DNA of 64,000 nucleotides from Curvularia clavata. Lineage: Eukaryota. Positions within the stretch are counted from its first letter, which is position 1, and every line of letters begins with the position of its first letter. Made by a program: the position numbers and the translations under genes. Below the pieces are notes generated by a model. The model saw only the letters and a list, made by a program, of their open reading frames with translations, had not been told where the DNA came from and made no database searches. Below are positions 19,369 to 27,556 of the stretch, one piece after another. The stretch is taken from NCBI GenBank assembly GCA_023920165.1, contig CP089277.1, positions 2,294,001 through 2,358,000 of the forward strand, written 5' to 3'.

Positions 19369-21189
19369 TGATAATAATAAAAATAATAATATGTGGTGGC
19401 GCGTGACTTGGTTCTTCGCTTCTTTGTTTTGCTGTGGTTTGTGCGTTTGCGACGTTTGGTTTTTCTATAAGAATATTTGTGACATTGGAAGATTATAGGG
19501 CCGCGCGTGGTATGGGATTTGGAGCATATATACTTGGATGTCACCGTGGGTGAACAGTGTTGTGTTGTGGAAGAACATTACGCAGGACGGTTTGGCTGGA
19601 CACTGTGCGCCTGTGGGTAGCATCATACCAACTTTTAGGAAATTCTTCACAGCGAGCCAATCGGTCTGTTCTCAAATCAAGTCACTAAACTATAACCAGC
19701 GCCTCAAGGGCAGCTATTGGATTAAGATTTGAGTCACATACATAGTTGATAACTACCTAGTATTCCATGCACAGCAAGGGGGCGGATTAGTGTTGTCTGG
19801 TCTTCAATAGCTATTTAGTGCTGCAAAAAATGAAGGCCTTTGCTTGATTTACCGTCTTGCTGCACGCATCTAGAATTCTTATCTAATGTCCGTCCCTACG
19901 TACCGGGACGCACGGTGTAACGGGACACTTTTTCTTTCGGGTGCCCGGATTTTACCCACCATGCCTATAAATCGACAGATCCAGCGTGCATCAATCTTGC
20001 AGCTCTTGCTCTTCTAGTACATCAGCCTCCGACGCTGAGAAGCGTGTTGTTGACCACGCTGTTGCTCGTTCTGTCGGTGCCGTCCATCGACTCTCCTCTG
20101 ATACCCCTTGTTTGTTCGCGACAACTAACATTTGTAGAGAGCTCGGTGGGCTAGAAAGAAAGTTAGGATAGCAAAGACCAAGACTGCACACTCAAAGAGT
20201 CGACTTAAGGTGAGCAGTGTGCATCCCGGCAGTTTCTCCGCGCTGGCGACAACATCGTCAAAACGCGTCGAACCGGCCGTGCGCCCTGAGCGACATTTGG
20301 TAGCAGTAGCGTGCTGAGATGTCTGCGAGCCGTATTGCGCGCTGTGGCTAAGCACCCTAGCAATATGATCCTTGCCTCAGGCAGCTCTTATTCCCGATCT
20401 GTAACGTCCATTCACCCATAACGGATCAACCGTCATAGCGGAACACTAATAGCACTTTCTATAATAACAACACCAACACCCATCGCATAGCTTATGTAAC
20501 TACTCTTGGAATAGACACCTTGATCTCTTGCCTCTCTACAGACCTGATATTTTTATCGCAACTCTCTTGGTTACCTTATAATACTACGAGTCGCTGCTAT
20601 TCTACCAATCGCCGTCACCTCGGACTGCCTCGAACCTCTCTTAATCTTCTTGCATCCGTACAAGAGCTTGTCATGCAGTAGAAACCTATTAGATGATCAT
20701 ATACCGAGAAATACAATCTTCCACCAAGTTGATTGCGCGGCAGCAGTGATTTGTTGCTTGATCGAATCGCGCAGCTCACACCCATACTGTACAGAAGCGG
20801 CCTAGCTGTATTCTAACAGCGCCTGAACACAGCCACACCTGACTCATATGAGGATGCCCTTTTTCACTCACGTGATGGTCGGCGGCTCGCAATATGCCGA
20901 AGTACTGCGACTAGATCCTTACGGCTACTAATTAATGTCTATCTCTTCATGGCGGGACACTTTTTCACCCGGATCTTCGGCATCAGGCCAGCGCGACTGC
21001 ACATAGTCGAGCATAACGCATATTGTTCTGCACGTATATTTCTTCATGTATACTAGTCAGCGAGAAGGAAACCCCAACGACCGTTCGATTATTATTTAAC
21101 ATTATATGCCATCAACGCAAAAATCCTGTCCCTCACAGCTGCACTGTCACGCACCCACTGCCAAAAAAATCCCCGCTCCTGGTTAGATC

Positions 21190-21588
21190 ATGGCTACCTT
21201 AATCTTCAGCCGTTCTGTTCCCTCTGATTTTGACGACGACGTTGACAATGCTAATGCCGACCTACCTCCCGAACATGTACGGGCTTATCCTTGTAAGGTC
21301 CCTTCGTGTCTCAACTATGGCAAGTCTTGGCTCCTCCGAAGCAACTTCTTCCTTCTGAAAGAGCAAGATTTAAACAAGGAAACAGCAACAACGCCGGCCG
21401 CATGCCATACAATCGAGAAAAGGTGGCGGTATACGATTGATCCCAATCTGCCGCCTTGGCGGCCCCAGATTTTCATTCCCGAAAGGGCCCAGACGAGGAC
21501 GTGTGGGAGTACAGATGACGACCCAGTCCGCCTTGGTAGTATAAGACTTTTGTCACGACTGCTGGGAGTGGTAAGTTACTATTGTTAG
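21190..21588 (+). pseudogene. Small Cys-containing protein remnant (YPCKVPSC motif), apparently frameshifted
   Basis: ATG ORF with AYPCKVPSCLNYGKSWLLRSNF and WRYTIDPNLP. A protein-like continuation (APDFHSRKGPDEDVWEY) lies in another frame near 21460. Confidence 0.4.
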
Positions 21589-21997
21589 GGAGGACCTCGG
21601 GACGAGTATTGAGGGGATAACAAGGTAGCCAGAGATATCAAGTCGCAGCAGGGCCGTAGATTGGACGGGTAAGACAAGGCATCGGAAAGAGAAACCCAAG
21701 CCCCATTGATGTGATGCAGATACATAGGACACAAAAGAAGCAACGACCACCTATATGATTCAGGATCGCTACGAATCCCTTGCGCTCTTTCATGTCTGCT
21801 ATAATTTGCTACGTAATGTCGATCTTCATAAAGTCCGTCCCTCCATTTGACACCGTTCGAAAGACGTCAAGACTGGTTACAAAAAATTCCTTGAACCTCC
21901 ATTCCCATTTTGGGAGAGGCCGACGGCTGCGCAAGCGCCGAGTGGAGCTCCGAAAGAAAAACCATGGTCGTGAGTGTCTACCGAACAGAGTAACAGG

Positions 21998-24554: not shown

Positions 24555-24829
24555 CCTAAGGTCTGCTATGATGTCCTTTGTGCAGTGTTGGAAGTAAGCT
24601 TAATAGATTTTTCGTCAACCGAAGTACGTTATGTGTGCACATGACCAATGTCTGAGCAAAGAACTCGATTCGAATTCCCTCATGAAGTTGGTAAGTCTAG
24701 TAGTGTAACGAATACCTGATTTCATTCCTTAGGCTAGGGAACCCCTGCATAAAAATTTAGCGAGGTACTTTGACTCCCATTAAGGCAGACAGCATAGTCG
24801 ATCGCATTTTTGTTCGTGCGTTGCCGTTA

Positions 24830-26691
24830 ACGTACCCCACGGGCGAGTTTCTCACACGGGCGAGTTTCTCACTTTTGCCAAGACCCCACCAAAACCACCA
24901 CATTATGGCACAGAATAGCCCATATTAGGCCTATATCAAGCAATGCGACATAAGAAATTATTCAGAGTCTACTTCTACTACCTGCTTACACGTTCTAGCG
25001 TTATGCCCAGTCTTATTGCACTATCCACACCGCCGTTGAGATGGTTCACCCCCTTTAGCGCGCACCTGCTTCTTTGCCTTCTTCCCATTACTACGCGCCC
25101 CAAAGTCTGTCAGAGCAGCCAGGCGCGCCCCATCTTTAACTATTAAGGTCCCCTCTGCCTGAATCCGCTTTTTTTTGTGCGATCTTCGTCGCGTGGCGGC
25201 TGCGTTAGCTGCTTCTAGCTCAGTAATACGTTTTTGCGCTAATGCTAGCTTGTGCGCAATAATCGCTGCCCCCTTTAAGACCTTCTTAAAAGCCTCTACT
25301 ATAGAAGCTGGTGAGCTATCTATATGCCTCTATATCCTCTGCTTTACTAGCGTCGACTGAGACCCTAATTCTAGAGTATTGCTGGGGGTTTGCGACACCT
25401 AGGGCTAGTTGTTGACAGGTAGGGGTGATGGAGTGCGCAACCTGACATCAAGGGCGGATATAACCCGTTCTAGGTTAAATGGGACCAATCTAGCGCCTCG
25501 AAATCCTCCTTGGATATTGCTAGCAGTAAACGAGGCGTCAAAAGCCCGCTTGAAGCAAGGTAGGAACTCTTGTTTAGTGATGTGGTTGATCTGGGTGCGC
25601 ATGACCGATTCGACTTGGCTCCCATAGGCCTGCTTCAAAGGGGCAAAACAGCCCACATCAAGCGGCTGTAAGAGGTGAGACGAGTGTGGAGGCATACAAA
25701 GAGTAATAATATTGTTATCTTTGCAGTATTTTTAGAAATCCAGCGAGTTATGGCTCTCACGGCCGTTAATAAAGAGTAGGCGGTGGGTACCTACCACCTT
25801 CTTCTTTGTATGCTCATTAAAGTGCTTTAGCCACGCAAGACCAAGCTTATTGGTTGTCTAGCCGTTCTTATAGACCCCAATAACCCAGTTCTGGGGTATA
25901 TCGCCGTCCTTGTACTAGCTTGAGAGGTGGTGGCGCGCCTTGAGGATGATGAAGGGCGGAATCGTCCACCCGGTCGCATTGATGCCCTGGATGACTGTTG
26001 CCTACTCTCTGTTGCCAGGCTGGATAGTCTTTGGCCGTCCGCGTCTCTCTAAAGCGGTAATAACTACTCTAGGAGTAATCTAGCCTATTATAAAGCCCGT
26101 CTCGTCAAAGTTGTACGTGTCGTCATCCTGGATACCATACTTGGCTTTCATGTTGGCTACTAGGCCAAACTAGTCTTGAATAGCCTTAGGATCCTCACAA
26201 AGGGCTCTCTTGTAGTCGTACTTGCGATTAAACTTCGTTTTAAGCTCAACGCGGCGCTTAACGAACGTACTGGGCCAGTTTTAGCCAACCTGGCCTAGAT
26301 TGCGCTTAGCACGTAAAGAATTAGCCATATCAGCCATATCTGCGAGCCTAGGGGGAAATCCACGTGAATTAAGATTAAGTATATGCTTAAAAACCACCTC
26401 CTCCTCAAGCTTAGTTAGTTTACTTAAATTAGGTATACAATCTACGCGTGAAGGTCGTCCTGCGCGTCGATTACTTAGTGTTCTCTAGGAGATGTTATAG
26501 ATAGCTGCAGCGCGTCGCTGTAAGAGATTCGCGTCTTGTTTAAGTGCCTAAAGCGCAAGCTATATCTGACATTCAGTAGAGGGCTGCAAGTGCTGTTTTT
26601 ATTGTGACATTAGGGGGTAGTAGGTGTTTTAGTGGGGTCTTGGCAAAAGTGAGAAACTCGCCCGTGTGAGAAACTCGCCCGTAGGGTACGT
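24830..26691 (-). mobile_element. Fot1/pogo-family (Tc1-mariner) DNA transposon, 1862 bp, RIP-inactivated transposase
   Basis: TIRs ACGTACCC(C/T)ACGGGCGAGTTTCTCACACGGGCGAGTTTCTCACTTTTGCCAAGACCCCAC with a 17-bp internal direct repeat; TA duplication 24828-9/26692-3. DDE_1 motifs YNFDETG and MPPHSSHLLQPLDVGCF; terminal RRCG*CNKTGHNARTC knuckle; many TAG/TAA stops. Transposase ~26610-24950. Confidence 0.95.
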
Positions 26692-27556
26692 TAAGGGATT
26701 TCCTTCATGGACAATAGAGGACGGCCGAACCGCACCCGCTATGATCTTGCCATGAACGTCCACGCCGGATGGCGTTGCGAAGACGCTATCGGCGCTGAGA
26801 CGCCACATCCAGCCACATGTGTGGCTGCCGCAAGAATTCAGCAGCGCTTCGGCACATTGCGAGCTACCGACCGTCACGTGGATATTACGAGACCCTCCTC
26901 GCACGAGTCAGTTGTGGCTGTGATCCGGCGAACTAGAATACGGCTAGACCGCTTCTGTACAGTAAGGATGTGAGCTGTTGCTTTGCTGTGCGACTCGATC
27001 AAGTAGCAAATCACTGCTGTAGCGCAACAAGCTCGTCGGGGACAGCAAATTGCTCGGCATACGATCTTGTTGTAATGTTCTACATATTAGCAAGCCTGTA
27101 GACAGATGCACAAAACTTAGAGATGGCCCGAGGCAGTCCGAGGTGATAGCGACTAGTAGCATAGCAGCGACTTGTGGTATTGTAAGGTAACTAAGAAAGC
27201 TACAACAAAGACACCAAGGGTATAGAGAGGCAAGAGGTTAAGGTATTTAATCCGAGAGTATTTAAGCTTTGTCATGGGTGTTGGTGTTGTTATTATAGAA
27301 AGTCCTGTCGGTGTTCCGCCAGGACGGGTTTTCCGTTACGCGTGGATGGATGTTAGGCAGCCATATTACCTAACACCTGCTTCTAGCACAAGTGAGGTGC
27401 GTTATCACGCTACGTAGATATGTCGTGCAGAGTTGATTAAATCTCTTTATGGGTCATCTGGACTTACGTTAGTAGGATTCACTCCTACGTGTTGATATAT
27501 ACTTCTAAAAGTCACGGCATCTAGCCTTAAGATTTACACTACACAGAGAAATAAAG

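Follow-up and report, generated by a model that had tools for sequence, protein, structure and literature searches.

The closest known system to the elements analysed here is ToxTA (formerly ToxhAT), which has been reported from Bipolaris, Pyrenophora and Parastagonospora (PMC12506042, PMC6737239). As described in those reports, ToxTA resembles our elements in that it occurs in Pleosporales, is non-autonomous, has a TA duplication proven via empty sites, carries whole genes including an NLR gene (Patatin-TPR), has undergone nested transposon invasions and has moved between species. The same descriptions give a length of 14 kb, 74-bp TIRs about 92% alike, one copy per genome in sequenced B. sorokiniana isolates and an unknown transposase; in contrast, as far as these descriptions go, the system reported here has inner arms of about 530 bp that are 74–75% alike, numerous members that differ in cargo, and a transposase candidate.

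Likeness is also found to the Fot family (pogo superfamily), with which the putative partner element described below shares a DD35D motif, a DDE_1 domain, a 44-bp TIR and TA sites (PMC7386202). The Fot members described in that account are 1.2–5.2 kb long and transposase-coding, unlike the cargo units here; their sites are given as mostly TAA, with TA in clades FotC and FotD only, and very long TIRs are reported for insect elements only. Host-gene cargo in DNA transposons is known, as here, from histone H3-carrying hAT elements of Dothideomycetes (PMC6710886) and from Pack-MULEs (PMC6431247). According to these accounts, the former took up a transcript that had already been spliced, use 8-bp target sites and survive mostly as RIP-dead copies, and the latter are mostly 1–2 kb, whereas the genes carried here are whole and intron-bearing. 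Starships resemble our elements in their accessory NLR and HET genes, but are described as tens to hundreds of kb long, led by a tyrosine recombinase and flanked by short direct repeats (PMC12506042, PMC9594970), whereas the units here measure 3–11 kb, have ends that are inverted and sit at TA sites; the Starship DUF3435 tyrosine recombinase was absent among the element ORFs scanned. A literature search mostly outside the subscription journals found only Starships, ToxTA and the H3-carrying hATs as published families of this kind, and supplements may bear on this result.

The window is the whole stretch of 64,000 nucleotides that was analysed (Curvularia clavata, contig CP089277.1, positions 2,294,001 to 2,358,000), and coordinates without a prefix refer to it. 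Within it lies an inner unit of 6950 bp (20404–27353) with TA on either side (20402–20403 and 27354–27355), bounded by a left arm of about 527 bp (20404–20930, forward strand) and, on the upstream side of the cargo gene, by a right arm (26822–27353, reverse strand); the two arms are 74–75% identical, and the TA-flanked inverted pair of the original prediction was thereby borne out. That prediction had also called this pair different from the pair of the surrounding outer unit, which holds insofar as the arms are distinct; they are not unrelated, since the terminal ~46 nt are common to inner and outer ends (E 0.0045). MULE target-site duplications are 8 bp or longer, and the inner-unit flanks have only TA in common, short of the ≥8 bp expected of a hAT or MULE insertion. 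As in ToxTA, whole-gene cargo is present without a transposase of the unit's own, the sole transposase match being a nested Fot1 with its own ends; a 74-bp TIR ~92% alike is absent. Directly inside the inner left arm is a decayed outer-type end (20933–21045, forward strand; E 4e-5) matching the left end of locus L045, possibly the relic of an older nesting, whose mate was not found. A 132-aa ORF (21190–21588, forward strand) had no Pfam match and is at most a putative gene.

The nested Fot1-type element, together with its two TA, occupies 24828–26693 (reverse strand; the element itself 24830–26691). It has a DDE_1 match interrupted by 12 stops, is RIP-damaged, and has arms that are 96% complementary; its transposase is 33% identical to that of the family and falls in a different clade. 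With TA on both sides and a position within the inner unit, it makes the locus a three-level nest, as had been proposed.

The outer unit spans 19886–30682 (10.8 kb), with TA at 19884–19885 and 30683–30684 and arms that are 79% alike. Its left arm, on the downstream side of the NLR cargo, runs from 19886 to 20401 (forward strand) and resumes at 27356, the remainder past the insertion being 27356–27362 (forward strand). The right arm (30145–30682, reverse strand) shares 93–94% identity with the arms that lie upstream at L035 and L036. The cargo is a HET-NB-ARC-TPR immune receptor pseudogene (27560–29813, reverse strand) with many stops and a RIP signature (CRI +0.52). The unit is a mosaic, first L037/L040-like (77–87%) and then L035/L036-like (84–98%), with the switch near 29750.

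The inner unit is inserted at a single TA within the left arm of the outer unit, and two sister copies at other places in this genome (L038 and L040) have the site uninterrupted. With the junction rejoined, the alignment to L038 scored 82 higher and that to L040 134 higher, compared with best gains of 10 and 9, respectively, among 300 random rejoins, so that a chance match can be set aside; L040 is identical at 178 of 208 positions across the rejoined junction. The empty site consists of one TA in L038, is mutated in L040, and is preceded by a deletion in L037. A TA duplicated around the unit, with one TA where the site is empty, follows the pattern of ToxTA. The original prediction had relied on the outer right arm, to which the junction rejoined without the inner unit does align; taken alone this is a modest test, equal scores having been reached in 9 of 2000 random rejoins, and the sister copies are far stronger evidence. 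Their empty sites bear out both the nesting and insertion in one piece with TA duplication, and the suspicion that outer-arm copies always contain the inner arm fails on the other outer copies that lack it. No joint skipping the inner unit at the window locus was found in the four of 24 runs examined.

The cargo of the inner unit is a regulator with SAM, HMG-box and Fungal_trans-like parts (CDS 21998–24554, reverse strand) that has no RIP signature (CRI −0.35) and encodes a protein of 766–775 aa, given removal of four introns. A single spliced poly(A) contig covers the gene (21682–24601, reverse strand); introns are seen in it at 23258–23308, 23085–23139 and 22401–22464, and the fourth, retained in this contig, is predicted near 22944/22965–23023/23029. 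Domain matches of the window protein are weak (SAM E 0.0014, HMG-box E 0.0005), SAM is above the cut-off in homologues, and the Atlas cluster of the regulator has SAM in 97% and HMG in 96%. The frame of the gene is uninterrupted and its transcript spliced, and the earlier identification of a transcription factor gene as cargo holds. The intact, single-copy regulator gene sits within a RIP-damaged host element, and no second inner-unit copy carrying it was found in the genome. The cargo regulator falls into a clade of its own, in which every named member comes from Pleosporales. A resident paralogue (L055) is 30% identical to it and was rejected as a second carrier, arms and inverted repeat being absent in 7.5 kb. 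Compared at the domain level, the cargo protein pairs SAM with an HMG-box as does Podospora PaHMG2, the deletion of which is described as affecting vegetative growth only (PMC3730723). The resident paralogue may be the true PaHMG2 counterpart. A role of the arm as cargo promoter is unsupported for the regulator gene. The contig starts at 24601, which leaves 47 nt ahead of the ATG, and its distance to the upstream arm exceeds 2 kb, or is about 350 bp if the Fot1 is discounted; this contig end may be a true start, as its loose letters resemble a cDNA primer.

The inner and outer units belong to sister subfamilies of one non-autonomous, TA-inserting gene-carrier family. Three pattern searches (control matches 0 in each) recovered 42 distinct family termini, and this and the following counts are lower bounds, several loci being known by coordinates only. 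Inward-facing arm pairs were present in 11 of 16 outer-type loci examined, and in 10 of the 11 an NLR gene lies between the arms (called by Pfam for five and by 68–93% protein identity for five more). The inner-type pairs L049 and L050 both enclose NACHT-WD40 genes, L050 with a HeLo gene besides, and a fourth inner-type pair (C8:320912-323920, coordinates only) has a decayed NACHT match inside. Paired carriers available in sequence thus number at least 14 in this genome (the window's two, ten outer-type with NLRs plus L041, and two inner-type; 15 counting all). Family arms are about 530 bp long and mostly 60–80% alike, upstream and downstream arms are intermixed in the tree, and the cargo consists of whole intron-bearing genes, with open frames in several. 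The family seems to mobilise entire genes and to shuffle them. The Tc1 transposases at L043 and L037 were rejected as the family enzyme; that of L037 has its own inverted ends, that of L043 appears to, and both were treated as nested.

A candidate partner is the element at C1:831676-834602, of whose 2.9 kb three pieces totalling 2.1 kb were seen, along with a database protein. It has TA on both sides and a 44-bp TIR 86% alike, in keeping with the 40–60 bp TIRs and TA or TAA sites of pogo/Fot elements, and its protein of 581 aa has a DDE_1 match (E 3e-34), DD35D residues assigned by motif (D163, D274, D310) and an HTH_Tnp_Tc5 match weaker than the cut-off (E 0.055), HTH_Tnp_Tc5 or HTH_psq being the DNA-binding domain expected of pogo/Fot elements. 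A terminal motif is common to the family ends and this intact element. The outer-arm profile matched 364 nt of the partner's 5′ non-coding end (E 8e-11) versus only 30 nt of its 3′ end, and with the first 50 nt removed all six outer arms tested gave z-scores of 4.1–7.9 against the 5′ end and of −1.1 to 1.4 against the 3′ end. At the level of sequence, the outer "long TIRs" are shown to be two 5′ ends, probably mixed between copies, rather than homogenised TIRs. We infer that the inner arms are likewise pogo/Fot 5′ ends; past 50 nt, all four scored −2.0 to 1.9 against the partner, the match lying at the very end only, and a recognised transposase element bounded by inner-type termini was found in none of 11 cases. 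Transposases of the partner's clade lie within 4 kb of a NACHT match in 3 of 8 instances, against 3 of 142 other DDE_1 matches (p 0.002, post hoc). Not every carrier is built of two 5′ ends, because C7:2364525-2372328 pairs a transposase and probable 3′ end with a NACHT gene.

Relatives of the nest occur in other data. Two further public runs (X9 and X10) cover it nearly identically with no or almost no cover of the flanks, although absent flank cover in the low-depth contigs of X9, X10 and X15 does not amount to proof of absence. X9 matches the nest ends over 369 nt (left) and 372 nt (right) with 0 differences, runs into other sequence at both, and spans the outer/inner junction over 4271 nt with 2 differences and zero flank cover; X10 likewise extends over the nest but hardly into the flanks. 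The loose end of X9 is presumably adapter-like, so that the new flanks in this run could be short or chimeric; those of X10 could derive from sister copies. The new junctions at both ends in X9 suggest a recent move of the whole nest. A joint in X2 from 30686 back to 19883, considered as an excised circle, was rejected and fits L037, at which 224 bp separate a right end from the left end that follows it. At L056, from another species, about 900 bp lie between an inner-type arm (E 2.7e-10) and the cargo gene downstream of it, which is 61% identical; no second arm was found in 3.6 kb of flank. Among 11 related loci from other organisms, L056 alone has a correctly placed inner-type arm; L060 and L063 carry family ends without the regulator homologue between them, and none were found at the other 8. 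Several of the contigs stop near the gene.

We consider it quite probable that the inner unit, as a cut-and-paste transposon of a pogo/Fot lineage that is non-autonomous, inserted whole, with its intron-containing regulator, at a TA in the arm of a sister element bearing an NLR gene, and that the Fot1 inserted into the inner unit. That the units transpose is what we infer. The clade transposase would act in trans on ~45-bp terminal cores, and the elements would have been assembled from two 5′ ends out of different copies, which would be why the arms of one element differ by 20–35%. Inner arms would derive from a sister autonomous subfamily, nesting among family members would generate new end-cargo combinations, and the whole nest may have moved recently, possibly between species.

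It is unlikely, in our judgement, that a real cargo transposon was instead moved by another transposase, be it of the abundant ordinary Fot1 clades, a Tc1 or a lost sister enzyme. The genome has at least 150 DDE_1 matches, many without stops, the nested Fot1 likewise starts ACGT, and searches of the genome found no cognate autonomous element for the inner arms; against this, the likeness between family and partner ends extends far past four letters, inner and outer ends have their terminal stretch in common, and one inner-type unit lies 8 bp past the stop codon of a clade transposase. Still less credit, of the order of a very slim chance, is given to passive spread, whether through segmental duplication, through ectopic recombination or aboard a larger element, for instance a Starship, in place of movement by the unit's own ends. 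Flanks diverge right outside the TA in the copies inspected, shared flanking DNA is absent in the loci examined and X9 departs at both termini, even though the mosaic copies reveal recombination and Starships are described as carrying ToxTA inside (PMC12506042).

Two separate transposon remnants flanking a resident gene, the "unit" never having been mobile as one, would accord with the low identity of the arms (119 differences, 44 of them transversions) and with the single copy of the regulator gene, but we give this reading almost no weight. Removal of the unit restores a collinear outer element, as at L038 and L040, and the gene therefore lies inside a multi-copy mobile element and not in host sequence; moreover, the resident paralogue elsewhere has no arms, and the homologue at L056 has the same upstream arm. 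The empty sites largely refute separate remnants.

Small gene-carrying transposons such as ToxTA are described without an identified mobilising enzyme, and here carriers, empty sites and a candidate enzyme occur in one genome. The 5′ end of the intact candidate element would explain the long arms. Together, these features make the mechanism directly testable. Arms 60–80% alike are easily missed by TIR finders, and annotations may therefore list too few elements of this kind. Among fungal strains, NLR genes are gained and lost. Only tentatively, we propose that a pogo/Fot clade common across Pleosporales might give rise to modular carriers, whose paired 5′ ends take up whole genes (chiefly immune receptors), and which exchange ends and cargo by nesting in each other and cross between species together with what they carry. 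If true, this modular system would parallel Starships on a smaller scale and drive the expansion of NLR genes in fungi, and it would include ToxTA, whose missing transposase would thereby be named.

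The inner unit, a cargo transposon with a regulator gene (20404-27353), had a TA at both ends and arms of ∼530 bp that were 74-75% alike. It lay in the left arm of the outer unit (19886-30682), which likewise had a TA at both ends, with arms 79% alike (window G000:C4:2294001-2358000 within the 32.4-Mb fungal genome). The Fot1 inside the inner unit (24830-26691) was flanked by a TA pair of its own, and its transposase match contained 12 stops. The original prediction held that removing the inner unit would restore a sequence matching the outer right arm; this match was present, but was weak alone, being equalled by 9 of 2000 random rejoins. 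The nesting itself was confirmed as an observation and its interpretation supported, with the strong evidence coming from sister copies in the same genome: rejoining raised the alignment score by 82 against L038 and by 134 against L040 (random rejoins, 300 for each, gained at most 10), and L038 had a single TA at the corresponding site. A decayed outer-type end was found directly inside the inner left arm.

A candidate partner element was located by crossing the coordinates of family ends with DDE_1 matches. This element, C1:831676-834602, was TA-flanked, had 44-bp TIRs bearing the family terminal motif, coded for a 581-aa DD35D transposase, and fits the Fot family as described in PMC7386202. 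Transposases of its clade (at least 61% identity) occupied eight genomic places, one in two pieces, with other Fot1 at 36-43%; close relatives (84-93%) occurred in Parastagonospora, Pyrenophora and Bipolaris. Both outer arms aligned over 364 nt to its 5′ non-coding end, and at the 3′ end only the terminal 30 nt aligned; thus the long “TIRs” are two inward-facing 5′ ends. Inner and outer arms had only the terminal ∼46 nt in common, and genome searches found no autonomous source of the inner arms. We infer mobilisation by this clade, and have considerable confidence in the mechanism as a whole. At G000:C7:2364525-2372328, a possible autonomous cargo carrier known only from its coordinates, matching family ends also surrounded a NACHT match together with a clade transposase whose frame was open over 449 aa. 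At L047:772-6857 and G000:C2:731088-734338, possible capture intermediates, a NACHT gene (decayed in L047) lay directly downstream of a clade transposase on the same strand, and at L069:653-951 the end of a TPR-repeat gene lay outside the autonomous element, ∼40 bp from its 5′ end.

The outer arm had 32 matches across the genome. Inward-facing arm pairs were present in 11 of 16 fetched outer-type loci, and ten of these pairs enclosed an NLR (eight HET-NB-ARC-TPR, one HET-NACHT-WD40 and one PNP_UDP-NACHT-ankyrin); the other five loci held one arm or a fragment within the stretch fetched. Both inner-type loci fetched besides the window were paired, with NACHT-WD40 genes. Three pattern searches yielded 42 distinct family ends and no control matches; a NACHT match lay within 8 kb inward of 10 of the 42, against 1.8% expected, although such loci had supplied some of the seeds for the patterns. 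Among individual carriers, L039:476-9937 is a cargo replacement: a PNP_UDP-NACHT-ankyrin gene and a Fot1 lay between its outer-type ends, with 345 bp remaining of the usual cargo region. L037:631-9113 had an open HET-NB-ARC-TPR frame of 1177 aa, a Tc1 element plus an insert bearing RNase H in its upstream part, and a lone right end 224 bp ahead of the left end. L041:1026-4016 was an outer-type unit of 3 kb whose two ORFs belong to no known family.

The inner-unit cargo was one minus-strand gene (ATG at 24554) whose product had SAM and HMG-box matches in Pfam, both weak. A 2792-nt contig of X15, which we guess to be an RNA run, spanned 21682-24601, showed three GT-AG introns and ended in poly(T); with these introns removed the frame ran 481 aa to a stop, or 766-775 aa if a fourth candidate intron was also removed. 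A RIP signature was present in the outer NLR (CRI +0.52) and Fot1 (+0.46) but not in the cargo gene (−0.35). The cargo gene was single-copy, with a 30%-identical paralogue elsewhere lacking arms. The protein had 141 homologues, the best 120 of 141 at 42-100% identity and the named ones from Pleosporales. As a lead only, a full-length homologue resembled Fungal_trans domains in its C-terminal part (features 0.88; predicted-structure TM ∼0.5). PaHMG2, a SAM-HMG gene of Podospora, affects vegetative growth (PMC3730723), and a similar role here would be a guess. Within the clade of the cargo regulator, the two members P0006 and P0091 lay on equally long contigs of one Paraphoma assembly, and three distinct versions carried the label Alternaria alternata.

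In another organism (L056), an inner-type arm lay ∼900 bp upstream of a cargo homologue in the same orientation (E 2.7e-10), scoring 93.5 against 38 ± 6 for shuffles with the first 50 nt excluded; a second arm was sought there and not found, and the arrangement was not seen at the other 10 of 11 loci with cargo-gene homologues. L063:591-12051, likewise from another organism, had three related ends around a regulator homologue, and its family ends also bounded a miniature element of 145 bp (11087-11231). Four of 24 listed sequencing runs (X2, X9, X10 and X15) were compared with the nest, and none showed the inner unit absent at the window locus. X2 contained the nest and shared the left flank of the window locus. 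X9 matched both outer ends with 0 differences before continuing into other sequence and spanned the outer/inner junction, with the flanks uncovered and Fot1 without close cover; X10 covered the nest by short near-identical pieces, with the flanks almost uncovered. These data point to recent movement of the whole nest, perhaps into or from another species. This reading is weakened because depth was low, X9 had an adapter-like end and the X10 pieces may derive from sister copies.

By description rather than end sequence, ToxTA is the closest described element: it is non-autonomous, duplicates TA, carries an NLR and has no known transposase (PMC12506042, PMC6737239), but its TIRs are short and well matched, unlike the long divergent arms here. 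hAT-H3 elements, Pack-MULEs and Starships are set apart by target site, cargo or enzyme. Among fungal transposons, Tc1/mariner elements are transferred most often. A literature search covering excerpts of papers found no description of this carrier family.

Elsewhere in the window, two features are possibly small elements: a hairpin of 37 nt (5873-5950, 86%) and, with 1.1 kb between its copies, an inverted pair of 29 nt (6219-7387). Two adjoining ORFs lay at 16607-17701, the first with weak nucleotidyltransferase matches (AbiEii-like, E 0.002), and a 544-aa ORF at 41331-42965 held a 44-nt repeat seven times.

Arms within one element were mostly 60-81% alike, and upstream arms compared between the window, L035 and L036 were 93-94% alike. 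Upstream and downstream arms were intermixed in the arm tree, with full support at two nodes, and the outer unit of the window was recombinant, with a switch near 29750. L050:2150-9901 (G000:C7:2789149-2796900), an inner-type unit inserted 8 bp past a clade transposase's stop codon, is a second nest within the family; its cargo, a NACHT-WD40 gene and a HeLo gene arranged head-to-head, may resemble NWD2/HET-S amyloid signalling pairs. A possible third nest, known only from its coordinates, is G000:C8:191905-198327, an element of autonomous type lengthened to 6.4 kb and containing an inner-type end at 192840. Since nesting of transposons within transposons also arises neutrally, no target preference is claimed. 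Nesting of family members would create new end pairs, and these in turn may give rise to new cargo combinations.
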